The notes under the pieces were generated by a model. That model worked only from the letters and a program-made list of their open reading frames with translations. It had not been told where the DNA came from and did no database searches. From IMG/VR virus record IMGVR_UViG_3300013947_000025, positions 1 to 64,000 of that record: 64,000 nt of DNA; one strand, 5' to 3'. The translations under genes and the position numbers were made by a program. The stretch comes from a virus (taxonomy: Duplodnaviria; Caudoviricetes). This document shows positions 39,292 to 58,967 of the stretch, in pieces. Positions within the stretch are counted from its first letter, which is position 1, and each line of letters starts with the position of its first letter.

Positions 39292-40005
39292 TTAAATTGT
39301 CCACAACCTTTCTATTCTAACCATACTTGTATTATCATCCTTTTTCAATGTTCTAATCTTTTCCTTCTGCCATATGCACATGAAATCATCAGGCGCGTGT
39401 TCCTCGCTTATAAACACCTTATGCCCCTGTTTAGCAAGCTGTCGCATATAATCCCAAAATTCATCATGGTTGAATGCGCCTGTTGAATAACCCGTTATTT
39501 CAGCATATGGGGGGTCAGCATATATGACGCTATGCTCAGGAATCACCACGTCTCTATAATCACCACACACGAATATAGCATTCTTCAATCCTGTCATGTC
39601 CCTCATCACACCGCGTTTCGCCTGACCGCAATAATCATCGCCACGTTTGTCATGAGCATATCCGCCAAACCACTTCCCACCAAACGAACAACCAAACCCT
39701 ACAAATCCCGTAAGTGCCGGATTCTCGTCTTTGTGCGCTTTGATATATTGATATCCTTCCTTGCTTACAGCATCCGGCGGTATCCATCCATCCTGTAGCC
39801 CTTGCCACATGGCGATAAGGTAAGGATGCAAATCGTTGCATATCTTAATATCCGCTTTGACCTTAGCTTCAATGGCGCAACCGCCACAGAATAGGCTCAC
39901 GAACGGTCGATGCACGCTCTCCTTATCCTGCCCCCCCCAAGTGAAGGGATTGATTATAGACGCTATTTCGCTTGATATAAGGCATTTGCCTCCCATGTAT
40001 CGCAT
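39292..40005 (-). CDS. DNA adenine methyltransferase (Dam/D12 class) with in-frame G8 tract
   Basis: 'MRYMGGK', 'LFCGG', 'IYADPPY', 'VFISE'; C8 at 39931-39938 (G8 on the coding strand, T-W-G-G-Q). Confidence 0.9.
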   Translation of the reverse strand: MRYMGGKCLISSEIASIINPFTWGGQDKESVHRPFVSLFCGGCAIEAKVKADIKICNDLHPYLIAMWQGLQDGWIPPDAVSKEGYQYIKAHKDENPALTGFVGFGCSFGGKWFGGYAHDKRGDDYCGQAKRGVMRDMTGLKNAIFVCGDYRDVVIPEHSVIYADPPYAEITGYSTGAFNHDEFWDYMRQLAKQGHKVFISEEHAPDDFMCIWQKEKIRTLKKDDNTSMVRIERLWTI

Positions 40006-40356
40006 TATATAATTACCTCCAATATGTCCCATATGCAACAAGCAACCATCAGTGACATCAGTACTAATCTATGCCGTCCGCCAAATCGTTTATAGCATTC
40101 CCAATTCAACCCAATACAGAATAGGGATAACGCAAAAATGGTTAAATCACGTAAGTTCATTTTCTATCTCCTCACATATGGCTCGCAATTACAACAACAA
40201 CTCCCGCAAGAAATAGTCCAACACCTCCTGCGAATGGATATACGCCAAACGCACAAGATTCTGAGCGACATTTTTTATGATTATATGAGTCCAATAACAT
40301 TGCAACGATACCCAAAATCATTAGAGCAAATCCAATTATACAAGTACATTTTAGCT

Positions 40357-40972: not shown

Positions 40973-41021
40973 ATTATAGCACATCAAACACGATTTGTCA
41001 AGGGGTTTAGAAAAAATTTTT
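40973..41021 (-). promoter_or_regulatory. sigma-A promoter TTGACA-17-TATAAT
   Basis: -10 at 40973-40978, -35 at 40996-41001. Confidence 0.8.
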
Positions 41022-41668
41022 CAAGATTTTTCTACTTTTATCAATTTGTCTTTCAAAACATAACCCAATTTGTAATTATTGTTGTTATCACCTTTGGGAT
41101 AGGGTTCTGTTTTCCATTTTAAGACTTGTTGCCATTGTTTCTTTAGATACTTTTTATGTGTACAAAAATAAACGTATCTATGCTTAGACGTTCTTACACG
41201 TCTATACTCACCCTGCTCATCGTTACTATAATGCCTTGGATGCTTGCCATCAGGGACATATTTGTCTGTGCGCTCTTTTGTTGCCCCTGTATAAATAAAA
41301 TTGCACGCTTGATAAATGTATCCGTGATGATTCATTGCTGTGTCGGAATATGATATTACAATTATATCATATTCCGACAACTGACGCAAACACCACGAGA
41401 CAAATCGGCTCAATGGCTCTTCTAAATCATCTGTGCGACATAAGCGATTTAATTCTATGACGTGATTCGCCCATTCTTTGCCACAAACTCCTTCGCACGG
41501 TTTTGGGGACGCAGGCTTACCGAATGTACACACGGCTTTTAATTCGTCGTTACGATACCATCCATAAGCATACGATACACAAGGAGCACGACCTGAATAG
41601 TGTCTGGGTAAAAGAAAATCAACTGCTGTTTTGTAATCAATGCGTCTCATTGGTGCTGATTGATTCAT
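41021..41668 (-). CDS. Mom-like (GNAT-fold) adenine-modifying enzyme
   Basis: 'RHYSG', 'IELNRLC', 'ISYSDTAMNHHGYIYQACNFIYTG', 'KHRYVY', 'PYPK'. Confidence 0.8.
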   Translation of the reverse strand: MNQSAPMRRIDYKTAVDFLLPRHYSGRAPCVSYAYGWYRNDELKAVCTFGKPASPKPCEGVCGKEWANHVIELNRLCRTDDLEEPLSRFVSWCLRQLSEYDIIVISYSDTAMNHHGYIYQACNFIYTGATKERTDKYVPDGKHPRHYSNDEQGEYRRVRTSKHRYVYFCTHKKYLKKQWQQVLKWKTEPYPKGDNNNNYKLGYVLKDKLIKVEKS

Positions 41669-44107: not shown

Positions 44108-45346
44108 TTACTTGCTCAGCCCAACAGGGATACCACGTCCAGCAAGTTCCTTCTTTGCTTCGCAGACATCATCCGAACAGAACATCTCCCTAAATTCCTT
44201 TAGCACCTCAATGAACCTATCAATATCCTGCTCATCCGTATCGTAGCCAAAGCTCAACCGGATACAATGTGCCGCTTCTTCCTTGGTTAATCCGTACGCT
44301 TCAGCGACACGATAATCGCCCTGTCCTGCGCAAGCCGAATGGAATGCGGAAAAATAAACTTGCCGTGTTGAAGCAAATTGCTGGAACGCATCTGCGTTGA
44401 TGTCGGGCAGGTACAGCCCTATGATACCAAGACTAAAGTCCTGCGTACCCCAATGGAACGATTTAACTATATCGTTGTAATCTTCGCGAATGTCGGCAAT
44501 GCCACGAATAAGACGTTCCCAAAGGGCGTTCCACTTGCTTTCAATGTATAATCCTTCCCAGCCATCTTTTCCACCAATGCATCTTTTTACCTCGTTCTGA
44601 CAATGTTCCATTGCTGTTGCCTGTGCCATTGCCTGAGCCACGTTAGGCGTACCGAAATGAAGCGGAGGCTCATTCCCTATACAATGTGCCTTCCACGCTC
44701 TATCGCTGAACCAGATGCCGCCCGTGCCTTTCTCAGCCCCTACCTTCTGCCCTGACCATATAGCTACATCACACCAATCGTCTATATTCTCGGGGATAGG
44801 CTCGTTGTGTAGACCTGCTGTAAGGTCGCAGACCATGTGCATACCGTATTGATGGACAAGGTTACCTATTTCCTTGACAGGCATAATTTGTCCCGTGAGA
44901 TTGTTGATGAACATCCATACACATGGACAAGGCGAACAAGTTTCATTCGATTCCTTTATCTTATCCTTGTTTATTCCAAGCCATAGTTTTAGCCCTTCAA
45001 GAGTTTTGCCAACAAACATATCTGGGCTGATACATTCACGTTTAGCGATATATGCAAGGCAATCATGCTCAAACGCGCTGATGGCACATGGTTCGCTAAA
45101 ATCGCTGTACAAATCCGCAAGATACTTGCCCATAATCGTAGCGTTTGCCCCAAAGATGATATGACCCGTCTTTGACCCAAGGGCTTCAAGGGCTATTGAT
45201 TCAGCTTCTTTTAGTTGTTTCTGGTCGCTTAGGGCATAGGGCTGATTGGGGTTATAATTTGTTCCTGTATTGAAGTCCCACCCCCAATATGTTGTGGGGG
45301 CGGATGCTGCATAATCAAGATATACTGGTTTATTCATTTGATTCAC
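44108..45346 (-). CDS. Cysteine desulfurase (IscS/DndA-like, PLP class V)
   Basis: 'VYLDYAASAP', 'NNLTGQIMPV', 'SGQKVGAEKGTG' (PLP Lys), 'GTPNV', 'HSAC' (catalytic Cys), 'IRLSFG'. Confidence 0.85.
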   Translation of the reverse strand: MNQMNKPVYLDYAASAPTTYWGWDFNTGTNYNPNQPYALSDQKQLKEAESIALEALGSKTGHIIFGANATIMGKYLADLYSDFSEPCAISAFEHDCLAYIAKRECISPDMFVGKTLEGLKLWLGINKDKIKESNETCSPCPCVWMFINNLTGQIMPVKEIGNLVHQYGMHMVCDLTAGLHNEPIPENIDDWCDVAIWSGQKVGAEKGTGGIWFSDRAWKAHCIGNEPPLHFGTPNVAQAMAQATAMEHCQNEVKRCIGGKDGWEGLYIESKWNALWERLIRGIADIREDYNDIVKSFHWGTQDFSLGIIGLYLPDINADAFQQFASTRQVYFSAFHSACAGQGDYRVAEAYGLTKEEAAHCIRLSFGYDTDEQDIDRFIEVLKEFREMFCSDDVCEAKKELAGRGIPVGLSK

Positions 45347-46408
45347 TTTCTGTTAATTTACGCTGTTTTTCAGCTTCTTCTTTTTCGTGGTAAATTCGTC
45401 TATATTCATCACGTTTTGCTTCATCGCCATCATTCCACCATTTTACGTTGATGTAATCGAGGACTTTAGCCATACCAAGCCCCTTATCGGGTATCCACAT
45501 TCCAGATTCATCATATTTACCACCACGCATACAATAGTCATAAAGTTGAGAATGGGTTAAAGCCATTTGTTGAAAACGGTTAGGGAGCTTCTCTTGAAGA
45601 CAACCAAAAGCACAAAATACGCACCCCGTCCTATTCATTCTTGAAAGGCTGTACTTGCCTTTTGCATAAATTATTTCACCATAGGGAGGCGCAATGGTAA
45701 TTTTGTTATCGTAGATATATTTTAACACGTCTTGCTCTGTCCAGAATGCCATCGGAGTTGATTGGGGAATTGCAAGTGTGTCAAAAGCATTGCATCCATT
45801 TTTTAACCATGCGTCTCTACGCCTACGACTTTCTTCCGTTAAAGTTCCTATAAACGCTTTGCGTCCGCTTTCTTTTTCGTAATGATGAAGAGGAGATTTT
45901 TTCATTACATCGCAACACAAATCGTCTATTTTGAAATCTGCTTCCAACAGGAATTTCCACTTGGTGCAATTATATTGAGATTCTTTACCGTCTTTACCCG
46001 GATATGTTCCTTCAAACATCTTATGCGCAGCTGTGTCGTTACGTTTAGATTTACGAACCTCACCCACACGACAAGCAATATTTTTGCTGATGATAGGATA
46101 CCCATACTTAGTCAGCACCTCACTAAACGTCATTTTAGGCTTAACCCAGACAACGTTATCAAACCCTCTAACAAACTCCCTGATTTCTGGAAATTCCAAA
46201 CCTGTATCAGCAAATACTGCGGGCACATCTGGATATATTTTTCTTACTAAATCAAGCAATACTGTACTGTCTTTGCCACCTGAGAAGGAAACATATACTT
46301 GCCCCCCCCCCAGTTCTCGTACCATTCAATAATTCTGGCGGTTGATATTTGAATTTTCTCTTCAAGAGACTTGGATTGTAGCTCTTTTAATTCCTCTTTG
46401 GTTGGCAT
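45330..46408 (-). pseudogene. PAPS-reductase-family (DndC/SspD-like) protein, out of frame at G10 tract (candidate phase-OFF)
   Basis: 'VSFSGGKDSTVL', 'DTGLEFPE', 'CCDVMKK', 'RTGCVFC'; N-terminal MPTKEELKELQSKSLEEKIQISTARIIEWYENW from ATG 46408 (GAGG RBS) joins the main ORF only with G8 or G11; C10 at 46302-46311. Confidence 0.8.
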
Positions 46409-46416
46409 ATTTTACC

Positions 46417-46839
46417 TCACAGACACGTAGTATCTTCCCAATAATCCTTGGTAACGTATACATTAACCTCGTCCTCAAACTTAACGCCAAAGACAAGCGT
46501 ATCGCCAGACATGGTAATGTAAAATTCTCCCGCCTTCCATTCGGGAGACATTAGATGGTCATAGCACTTGTCAACCATTCCCTGAATTTCTTCGTCCTTA
46601 ATCTCTACTGCCGACTCGCTGTCCGTATGGTCAAATGTTGTCCCCCACGTGGGAGTCATCACACGATAATCGCTAATGAATATTTCCTCGCCGCAGACAG
46701 GACAGGTCAAGCACATCATACCCCATAATCCCATGTGTTCATCCACTTCGTTATACTCAAGCTCTGCGCCACAATGGTCGCATATGGTGCGCTTTGGATA
46801 AGCTGTTTCCTTAACTTCGCTTCTGCTAATTACCTTCAT
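46417..46839 (-). CDS. Zn-ribbon hypothetical protein
   Basis: CDHC and CPVC motifs. Confidence 0.55.
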   Translation of the reverse strand: MKVISRSEVKETAYPKRTICDHCGAELEYNEVDEHMGLWGMMCLTCPVCGEEIFISDYRVMTPTWGTTFDHTDSESAVEIKDEEIQGMVDKCYDHLMSPEWKAGEFYITMSGDTLVFGVKFEDEVNVYVTKDYWEDTTCL

Positions 46840-57606: not shown

Positions 57607-57684
57607 TGGTAGCGCAATTCGGGCTCGAACCGAAACTGTTGGTATTTTGAGTACCATGCCTCCTGCCTATTGGGCTACTGCGCC
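57607..57684 (-). tRNA. tRNA-Leu(CAA), short variable arm
   Basis: GGCGCAG/TTGCGCT acceptor, anticodon loop CT-CAA-AA, T-loop TTCGAGC, encoded CCA. Confidence 0.85.
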
Positions 57685-57743
57685 ATATGCGCCATTGCTG
57701 ACGCATACAAAAGAGGTTATTATGGAAATGGGGACAAGCCCCT

Positions 57744-57819
57744 TGGCAGACGAGGTTGAATTTGAATCAACGTGTGCAGGAGTCAAAGTCCTGTGCCTTA
57801 ACCACTTGGCTACTCGCCT
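57744..57819 (-). tRNA. tRNA-Gln(TTG)
   Basis: AGGCGAG/CTCGTCT acceptor, anticodon loop CT-TTG-AC, encoded CCA. Confidence 0.88.
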
Positions 57820-57826
57820 ATATACA

Positions 57827-58195
57827 AACTCGAATTACACCAGCCATGCAGGAACTTCACGGTCATTTGCAACAAACCTTACTGTACTCATGGATTTTGT
57901 AAACCTTTCACCTTTCACCTTTATTCATTGACCTTTAGATTAAAATAACCTTTGAATTTTGACCTTTAATCGTTGACCTTTATCCTTTAACCTTTACAGT
58001 TAAATATTTACCCTCATACATTAGCAGTGTATAGGTAGCTTTCTTCTATTCCCAAGCTTAACCGAATAAGGCAGGAACAAAATATTGGATAATGAGTCCA
58101 ATGAATTGTGAAGGGCATTTCTTTATTTTATCCTTGCGAAACACGCCCAAAACCGCAAGCTGTTACAGTTTAGAAGTTTCGATGCAATTCGAGTT
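57827..58195 (-). ncRNA. Putative ~370-nt structured ncRNA with heptad AAAGGT array
   Basis: 15-bp terminal stem (58181-58195 with 57827-57841) including G-U pairs on the - strand, second stem 58173-58180/57851-57858, internal hairpins, no credible ORF. Confidence 0.7.
57903..57995 (-). repeat. 7-nt periodic AAAGGT(N) array
   Basis: ACCTTT on + at 57903, 57910, 57917, 57931, 57948, 57962, 57976, 57990; TCCTTT at 57983. Confidence 0.9.
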
Positions 58196-58212
58196 ATTTA
58201 CTTAGAAGTTAA

Positions 58213-58851
58213 TCAATAGTCAAATTCTATCACTGTCAGCGCATTTGATACGCTAAGGGCTGAATCAACCTCAGACTTGAACGAATCAATCTTGTCGGTT
58301 AATTCTTTGATAACCTTCTCAACATCAAATCCGGTCACGATGTCATAGGCGTTATTGGTCATATACACCCTCTGTGCGGTTTCAATATCGGGATTATTTA
58401 TCTTGTCCTTAGAACCGAACGTTGCCTGAATATAAGTTTCGCAAGCCCTTACAAGCTTTTCGCCATTCTCAGACTCCGCCATGCGCTTTGCGGACGTATA
58501 CTGGTCTCTAAGGAAATCACGGAAATCAATCAAGTTCTCCATGCCGTGATTATTCATCTCAATTGCCTCGGCAACCGAATATTGAACGTCACCAATCTCG
58601 ACCTTGGTCACAGCATTGGACAGGACAACCGCCTTCTTAAGCGCATTGCGTCTGTTAATCAATGCCGTCACAGACTGAAGATTCGAGATAGTATCTGCCC
58701 GGAAATCCTCTACAGACTTGCCAAAAATCTTCATGTTGTTGTGGCGGTTCGCCTTGACAAAGATTGAACCAGTGATTTCAGAATTGATTCTATCATCAAG
58801 GGTCTTAAGTTCTGCAAGTGCCTTATGCACCGTCATCTTTTCGTGTATCAT
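58213..58851 (-). CDS. Helical/coiled-coil hypothetical protein directly upstream of the putative ncRNA
   Basis: 'MTVHKALAELKTLDDRI...YSVAEAIE...FKSEVDSALSVSNALTVIE'; GAGGTG RBS. Confidence 0.8.
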   Translation of the reverse strand: MIHEKMTVHKALAELKTLDDRINSEITGSIFVKANRHNNMKIFGKSVEDFRADTISNLQSVTALINRRNALKKAVVLSNAVTKVEIGDVQYSVAEAIEMNNHGMENLIDFRDFLRDQYTSAKRMAESENGEKLVRACETYIQATFGSKDKINNPDIETAQRVYMTNNAYDIVTGFDVEKVIKELTDKIDSFKSEVDSALSVSNALTVIEFDY

Positions 58852-58892
58852 AATTTCACCTCATTTAATAAACTTTGATGCGGTCTTGCCGC

Positions 58893-58967
58893 TGGTAGCG
58901 ATGTTGAGTGTCGATCTCATGTCTTCCCCTTATAAGGAGGACGCTCTAACCGTTGAGCTACATCGCC
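58893..58967 (-). tRNA. tRNA-Ile(TAT)
   Basis: GGCGATG/CATCGCT acceptor, anticodon loop CT-TAT-AA, atypical T-loop ATCGACA, encoded CCA. Confidence 0.8.

Follow-up and report, generated by a model that had tools for sequence, protein, structure and literature searches.

In the phage genome IMGVR_UViG_3300013947_000025 we found a locus that is, as predicted from its sequence, a poly-G-switched and copy-number-variable cassette of the PAPS (3'-phosphoadenosine 5'-phosphosulfate)-reductase family docked on a conserved phage cysteine desulfurase. The window analysed here, a stretch of 64,000 nucleotides, opens an IMG/VR virus record of 124,408 bp that CheckV rated complete. Within it, a zinc-ribbon gene, a split PAPS-reductase-like (PAPS-like) gene and the desulfurase gene are co-directional on the minus strand at 44.1-46.9 kb. 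The explanation we favour, tentatively and with slightly less than even confidence, is that the PAPS-like gene forms an accessory, phase-variable and sulfur-dependent cassette for DNA modification and anti-defence, which would be served by a core phage desulfurase and, in this genome, would be off. What we infer in this explanation is that sulfur passes between the two proteins, that DNA is the target and that the role is one of anti-defence.

The body of the PAPS-like gene (45330..46325, minus strand) is a 331-aa open reading frame (ORF) that was assigned to the PP-loop ATPases of the PAPS-reductase family by Pfam, PHROG and PADLOC searches, alignment and an AlphaFold2 (AF2) model. It contains SFSGGKDS, DDLCCDVMK and NRTGCVFCAFGC, so that all the motifs by which an earlier note on this DNA had recognized a PAPS-family gene (SGGKDS, CC and RTGCxxC) were present. 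The ORF belongs to the superfamily of Pfam PAPS_reduct (PF01507; E = 2e-20, 73.9 bits against a cut-off of 22.5), matched phrog_424 (6e-46), and was free of defects other than the poly-G tract described below, with 93% identity to the full-length protein P0054 (359 aa), a representative of 147 database sequences. Across 55 aligned homologues, S43-G-G-x-D-S, C165, C166, C206, R260-T-G-C263-x-x-C266 and C293 were invariant; the cysteines are those of a CC dyad, a GCN, the RTGCxxC and a C-terminal DYC. The enzyme looks catalytically competent. Variation was concentrated in a hypervariable block of about 40 residues (111-150), with an entropy of 2.5-3.0 bits, compared with under 1 for the greater part of the conserved core, and this block fits a diversified specificity among paralogues.

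The AF2 model of the PAPS-like protein had a predicted local distance difference test (pLDDT) score of 91.7, and its best structural matches in Foldseek were CysH and adenosine 5'-phosphosulfate (APS) reductases (probability 1.00; PDB 2goy, 6vpu and 1sur), followed by CysD, LarE and TtuA. These closest solved folds, and the annotation of many relatives as PAPS reductase, are what would be expected of an auxiliary gene for sulfate assimilation, that is, a true CysH-type PAPS/APS reductase making sulfite. We consider such a function highly improbable, and rejected it because the PP-loop is intact, the CysH tail is missing and the family scores fall short. The segment of E. coli CysH that aligned with the phage PP-loop is a degenerate SSSFGIQA, whereas the ATP-binding SGGKDS of the phage protein is canonical, which argues for ATP-pyrophosphatase (adenylating) chemistry as in DndC and against sulfonucleotide reduction. 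ECGLH is the C-terminal catalytic cysteine motif of CysH, and no motif of this type was visible in the phage sequence. Scores against the NCBIfam models of CysH and APS reductase were 25-39 bits, compared with cut-offs of 154-254, which places the protein outside the CysH family. Unlike these reductases, the phage protein also carries extra N- and C-terminal helices and the hypervariable insert, and a desulfurase, which consumes cysteine, would be an odd partner for cysteine synthesis.

The cysteines themselves suggest a cluster. The CC...CxxC of the phage protein resembles the [4Fe-4S] ligands of APS reductase, and the fuller pattern CC...GC...CxxC is that of [4Fe-4S] APS reductases and DndC. 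C165, C166, C206, C263, C266 and C293 are thus candidate ligands of a [4Fe-4S] cluster; the phmmer alignment of the sub-region with 7lhr covered only residues 45-90 of the fragment and did not reach the cysteines.

Comparison with DndC pointed to a remote similarity. The phage protein had no match at E <= 0.01 to the NCBIfam DndC model (TIGR03183, cut-off 290 bits), on which a genuine DndC from a dndBCD locus scored 625 bits. In hhalign, the phage protein and that genuine DndC were aligned over 181 columns (85% probability, E = 6e-6), with phage C166 placed on the cysteine of the DndC RWC. The phage protein is about 355 aa long compared with 509 aa for the DndC examined, and has CC where that DndC has WC. 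The PADLOC matches to BrxP (1e-17) and SspD (6e-8) spanned only about 60 residues of the PP-loop, and the thresholds for these two families were missed. The comparison by profile and structure that the earlier note had proposed was therefore borne out for a CysH-like fold and a distant relationship to DndC, and not for membership under the curated DndC and CysH models; the locus is, by these comparisons, not a member of the Dnd or the CysH family.

The second gene (44108..45346, minus strand) is a 412-aa ORF that we assign to a phage-specific group-I cysteine desulfurase like IscS, NifS, DndA and SspA. It contains WSGQK and FHSACAG and matched the class-V aminotransferase family Aminotran_5 of Pfam (3e-13). 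The lysine for pyridoxal phosphate (PLP) in SGQK and the catalytic cysteine in HSAC, to which the earlier note had drawn attention, proved to be part of a complete catalytic set: H94, D174, S198, K201, R363 and C339, corresponding to the stacking His, the PLP-Asp, the S-x-x-K with its Schiff-base lysine, the substrate Arg and the catalytic Cys, were aligned with the desulfurase 4isy and were invariant in 22 homologues, down to 30% identity. On these residues the protein belongs to group I and looks catalytically competent. Its best PADLOC desulfurase matches were SspA (1e-17) and DndA (3e-15), with IscS and NifS also among the best named relatives. All scores were under every curated NCBIfam cut-off, which makes it a divergent member of the group rather than an equivalog of IscS, DndA or SufS. 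The clade is viral, with the nearest cellular proteins 22-29% identical. A search for prophage copies in 185,579 species genomes returned only housekeeping desulfurases at 22-29% identity, and therefore gave no clue to the host.

The two genes are closely joined. The overlap of 17 bp described in the earlier note holds with the GTG start at 45346; relatives start the desulfurase at an ATG three codons on (MNKPVY; 45337), the likely true start, which leaves an overlap of 8 bp, ATGAATAA. The PAPS-like and desulfurase genes overlap or abut in the window and in the related loci L005, L006, L007, L010, L012 and L113-115. Translational coupling is thus evident, as read from the gene arrangement, wherever both genes are present in the closer clades, in which the desulfurases are 43-93% identical. 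Structure prediction of the pair as a complex gave an ipSAE of 0.47 (0.49, 0.47 and 0.43 in separate runs) compared with 0.00 for the best control; the runs shared at least 60% of contacts, and the partner had a pLDDT of at least 86. The mark set for ipSAE was passed by 58 of 80 solved complexes and by 2 of 110 mismatched pairs, and those passing with values of 0.60 or less comprised 7 of the 80 solved complexes and both mismatches. The prediction was rated as weak support for a complex.

The PAPS-like gene is divided by a homopolymer of ten G residues (46302..46311, C10 on the plus strand), which lies about 33 codons into the gene in a W-G-G linker. Upstream of it is a leader ORF of 53 aa (46247..46408, minus strand), whose N-terminal ~36 aa (MPTKEELKELQSK...IIEWYENW) belong to the PAPS-like protein and which runs out of frame past the tract; downstream is the 331-aa body. 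The leader (MPTKEELKELQSK...IIEWYENWGGG) shares 90% identity with the first 39 residues of P0052, an intact relative of 355 aa, and was kept in all paralogues. In L005, from a phage related at 85%, one unbroken gene of 355 aa reads TGGGAGGGGCAA at the position of the tract. The frame would be restored by G8 or G11, in agreement with the earlier note, and the PAPS-like gene is evidently OFF in this genome through G10.

Every paralogue of the lineage has the tract at these W-G-G codons, and its length differs between alleles. Two uninterrupted tracts were in frame, the G8 of L006 copy 2 and that of L012. The others were out of frame: G8 in L006 copy 1, G9 in both copies of L007 and in copy 3 of L006, and, for the window, G10. 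Interruptions (GGGAGGGG, GGGGAGGG, GGGAAGGG) were seen in seven tracts, every one of which was in frame. The body of P0053 is 100% identical to that of the window, and its upstream frame would correspond to a G9 allele. Locus L006, with 94.8% DNA identity to the window, carries G9. The occurrence of G9 and G10 alleles with 100% identical bodies and intact ORFs on either side marks the tract as a homopolymer contingency locus, of the kind that underlies phase variation.

Homopolymers of 9-10 are error-prone, the G10 is backed by one assembly only, and the body ORF, with 93% identity to P0054, is intact. On these grounds the tract could reflect a mistake in sequencing or assembling the homopolymer, or no more than a consensus drawn from a mixed population, with the gene in effect expressed, perhaps through transcriptional or ribosomal slippage. 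We regard this as quite unlikely. Out-of-frame tracts were found at the same site in independent ENA, Logan and IMG/VR assemblies and also in other genes of this genome, and no interrupted tract was out of frame, a pattern that random error would not give.

The tract appears to have a second function. Comparison of the window with L006 showed that what the window lacks is exactly the DNA lying between the copy 1 and copy 3 tracts, which indicates that the leader and tract also serve as a recombination point for the cassette. Relative to L006:947-3028, the window PAPS gene is a chimera of the copy 1 leader and the copy 3 body, with the junction inside the poly-G. The paralogues, of which there are none to three, which are diversified and each of which has its own tract, have evidently been shuffled or lost by recombination in the shared leader and tract, as judged from these alignments.

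Long G/C runs were enriched in the genome as a whole. In the 124 kb, six G/C runs of at least 8 were observed against about 0.9 expected, compared with two A/T runs of at least 8 against about 17 expected, and in five of the six G/C runs the G strand was the sense strand of a gene. The sixth, a G8 at 70670 of the complete genome, has no obvious long ORF in any frame and may be intergenic or in a promoter. All six lie within the AT-richer part of the genome; in the window, the GC content falls sharply from 54-60% at 1-21500 to 38-45% at 21500-64000. A poly-G at W-G-G codons was also present in two D12-class Dam-like genes, as a G8 in the ON state at 39.9 kb and as a G9 in the OFF state near 67.1 kb. 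The first of these (39292..40041, minus strand; 2.8e-14) has its tract in frame at 39931-39938. The second lies outside the window, at about 66.5-67.2 kb of the genome (C9 at 67125), and reads MKYVGSKRRL...NWGG followed out of frame by ...YIEPFVGGANM. A gene for a Mom-family DNA adenine hypermodification protein (41021..41668, minus strand; PF25680, 1.5e-31; phrog_1384, 1.6e-53) completes the Mom-like and Dam-like modifiers that had been noted nearby.

Because the PAPS-like gene is under the same switch as DNA methylase genes, it is linked to DNA modification, and this is the strongest internal hint of a DNA target. Phase-variable DNA methyltransferases, known as phasevarions, are modification genes switched by 5'-proximal homopolymeric G tracts, and Campylobacter phages reportedly carry hypermutable poly-G tracts (Sorensen et al. 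2021). Like these, the present phage has several G tracts per genome and an enrichment of G/C runs. Unlike either of them, it is a gut phage in which an enzyme of sulfur type is switched, and its tract is the junction between leader and variable body and doubles as a recombination point.

The earlier note had left the target between DNA and tRNA. DNA is favoured by the shared W-G-G switch and by the anti-Dnd genetics of a Vibrio phage PAPS gene discussed below, and tRNA is disfavoured. In the alternative, the two proteins would form an abbreviated pathway of a desulfurase and a PP-loop thiolase acting on phage or host tRNA, of which YrvO-MnmA and NifZ-ThiI of B. subtilis are examples. The phage encodes tRNA-Leu(CAA), tRNA-Gln(UUG) and tRNA-Ile(UAU) at 57607-58967 of the window, the Fe-S (iron-sulfur) tRNA thiolase TtuA was among the fold matches, and an RNA_ligase-family gene (PF09414) was found in the same slot of L113-115. 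A tRNA-Gln(UUG) normally needs s2U34 (2-thiouridine at position 34), which could link it to sulfur mobilization. We nevertheless consider tRNA or RNA thiolation improbable. The protein falls in PF01507 and not in the tRNA-thiolase families, the sole trace of which was a match to PF01171 at 0.004, below the cut-off, in one relative. The TtuA match (E ~5e-4, template modelling score 0.33) was far weaker than those to CysH and APS reductase, and a tRNA enzyme would not be expected to be phase-variable, to have as many as three hypervariable paralogues or to share its switch with Dam-like genes.

To understand the organization of the locus, we compared the slot beside the desulfurase in relatives. 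Three tandem PAPS paralogues occupied it in L006 and L113-115; L007 had two PAPS genes, one adjacent and one about 3.6 kb downstream; and one was present in the window, L005, L010 and L012. The slot held none in L028-L030, and in L031 and L032 an unrelated gene of 107 aa was found in place of a PAPS gene. The desulfurase ORF of L031:5001-6275 (P0018) starts with the PAPS leader (MPTKEELKELQSK...; MPTKEELKELQSKPLE...), and is therefore a deletion scar from which the PAPS cassette was lost. In the clade with desulfurases 33-35% identical, the PAPS gene was 3.5 kb away in L008 and downstream in L016. With a constant desulfurase and none to three PAPS genes, the locus combines a core gene, that of the desulfurase, with an accessory PAPS-like cassette, and this arrangement replaces the 'minimal two-gene system' of the earlier note. 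The PAPS slot has the character of an anti-defence hot spot. In L113-L115:2245-2913, a gene of the RNA_ligase family (PF09414, 222 aa) lies between the zinc-ribbon gene and the first of three in-frame PAPS paralogues.

The near-constant neighbour of the desulfurase is the zinc-ribbon gene (46417..46839, minus strand), which encodes a four-Cys protein of 140 aa in phrog_2834, a family of unknown function. Among loci whose desulfurase is at least 30% identical, nearly all had a homologue, L014 and L016 being the only ones without. C20, C23, C46 and C49 of the protein are invariant, the C-terminal domain is beta-rich, and the gene lies either upstream or downstream of the desulfurase. Searches gave no Pfam family above the cut-off and no PDB fold match at E <= 0.001 (model pLDDT 78.6). 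The zinc-ribbon protein could be a partner of the desulfurase.

Linkage in relatives, which the earlier note had set as a test of its proposal, was thus upheld in part: the genes abut or overlap where both are present in the closer clades, and the association fails elsewhere. Several findings weigh against the explanation we favour, and this is the first of them. Within 5 kb of the desulfurases of L028-L032, which are 80-93% identical, there is no PAPS gene, and L014, a near-twin of L016, lies in the complete 84-kb genome G001, which has the desulfurase and lacks PF01507 genome-wide. The desulfurase therefore persists without a PAPS gene and has, or also has, another role. In addition, the PAPS-like protein scored far under every curated NCBIfam cut-off, and the G10 length on which the OFF state depends comes from one assembly. 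Known biology adds two further points. Every characterized phosphorothioate (PT) system requires an ATPase and a DNA-binding or nicking partner, which are DndD/E, SspB/C or BrxC/Z/L (PMC12914056; PMC12707154), and in bacterial isolates with a lone PAPS reductase the PT signal was absent (PMC12914056).

Because the desulfurase outlives the PAPS genes, a general supply of sulfur or Fe-S clusters is a serious rival. The desulfurase would then be a NifS-like housekeeping helper for several phage Fe-S enzymes or for some other sulfur need, and the PAPS-like protein would be only one client. This client would not have to insert sulfur itself, and may instead adenylate DNA or nucleotides in some other ATP-dependent reaction, or serve as a decoy for host Dnd or as its inhibitor. 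We hold this to be somewhat unlikely. In addition to the retention of the desulfurase where PAPS genes are absent, and of the zinc-ribbon gene rather than a PAPS gene as its near-constant neighbour, it is supported by two radical S-adenosylmethionine (radical-SAM) [4Fe-4S] proteins in the genome: NrdG, encoded near 30.8 kb, and an uncharacterized enzyme of 340 aa at 67.2-68.2 kb. The 340-aa enzyme (L116:847-1869, minus strand) adjoins a RecJ-like exonuclease, and its best, weak similarities were to NrdG, MoaA, viperin and QueE. A precedent is DndA, which is described as assembling the Fe-S cluster of DndC in the account of You et al. 2007 that is relayed by PMC12914056. On the other side, G001 keeps the desulfurase although it lacks a PAPS gene and no radical-SAM gene was detectable in it or in the others of G001-G004, and Fe-S clients therefore do not explain the conservation of the desulfurase there. 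No IscU, NifU or SufE scaffold turned up, in searches that were not aimed at these proteins, and the tight overlap with the PAPS gene recurs across relatives with desulfurases 43-93% identical.

The favoured explanation, a sulfur-dependent DNA-modification and anti-defence cassette, draws on the known PT systems. BrxP, DndC and SspD are the sulfur-inserting PAPS-reductase-domain enzymes of all of these (Dnd, Ssp and type-4 BREX; PMC12914056; PMC12707154), and in type-4 BREX a desulfurase and a small zinc-finger protein often accompany the PAPS reductase (PMC12839542). The phage locus is similar to DndA-DndC, SspA-SspD and BrxP in that a desulfurase gene adjoins that of a PP-loop enzyme of the PAPS superfamily with conserved cysteines and in that the desulfurase is dispensable or replaceable, and it is similar to type-4 BREX in the added small zinc-finger protein. 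It differs in being phage-borne, in having none to three copies with a poly-G switch for each, and in that no DndD/E, SspB/C or BrxC/Z/L partner was detected. For DndD/E, the lack of a partner that the earlier note had reported for the window extended to the entire 124-kb genome, in which PF08870 (DndE) and PF13476 (AAA_23) were not found, the AAA_23 control being positive in 14 of 14 genomes; DUF4007 (SspB) also had no match there, a result that is uninformative as its control matched nowhere either. With no linked DndD (ABC ATPase) or DndE (RHH), the locus does not belong to the Dnd modification systems.

A phage precedent was found in a Vibrio phage in which two specific genes, including one for a PAPS-Dam fusion, are responsible for activity against Dnd (Piel et al., bioRxiv 10.1101/2021.05.05.442762). 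As described, that system is similar to the present locus in tying a phage PAPS domain to a Dam-type methylase in a variable anti-defence region, and differs in that its short PAPS domain (residues 4-175) is fused to Dam and has neither a desulfurase nor a poly-G. Elsewhere among deposited phages, 42 records had PAPS-like homologues and only one matched the desulfurase. Three neighbourhoods of these homologues were inspected, and none had an annotated desulfurase, with terminase, portal or replication genes as the neighbours. At the DNA level, deposited phages gave only short chance matches. A search of IMG/VR for the leader and poly-G pattern returned three short contigs in which neither protein was matched. 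In the literature we found no paper on a phage pair of PAPS reductase and desulfurase, nor on poly-G-switched PAPS genes.

In the mechanism we propose, the desulfurase would form a persulfide from cysteine and would load sulfur onto the PAPS-like enzyme, build its Fe-S cluster, or do both. The PAPS-like enzyme, using ATP, would then activate an oxygen of a nucleic acid so that sulfur replaces it. The target would most likely be the phage DNA, in which a phosphorothioate-like linkage or a thio-base may protect against host restriction or PT-based defence. A bolder form of the proposal, which we consider unlikely, is a 'sulfur phasevarion', in which up to three diversified DndC-like sulfurtransferases with separate poly-G switches and a dedicated desulfurase would mark phage DNA, either without a DndD/E-type partner or through the Dnd, Ssp or BREX-4 machineries of the host. 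Switching of this kind would let the phage population hedge against two sorts of host, one restricting unmodified and the other PT-modified DNA.

In viromes from the gut and the sea, 'PAPS reductases' of phages rank among the most frequent of the genes described as auxiliary metabolic, and their role has been called puzzling in recent papers. An experimental phenotype is known for a phage PAPS domain in only one case, the anti-Dnd activity in a Vibrio phage (bioRxiv 10.1101/2021.05.05.442762). The locus described here provides three independent pointers to sulfur-dependent DNA modification or counter-defence over sulfate assimilation, namely the desulfurase partner, the diversification of 40 residues among paralogues and the poly-G switch shared with Dam, and it supplies natural ON and OFF alleles. 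If the proposed sulfur chemistry is true, the locus would be the first example of a sulfur modification of DNA that is both encoded by a phage and phase-variable, and it would operate with neither the ATPase nor the DNA-binding partner that have been considered essential.

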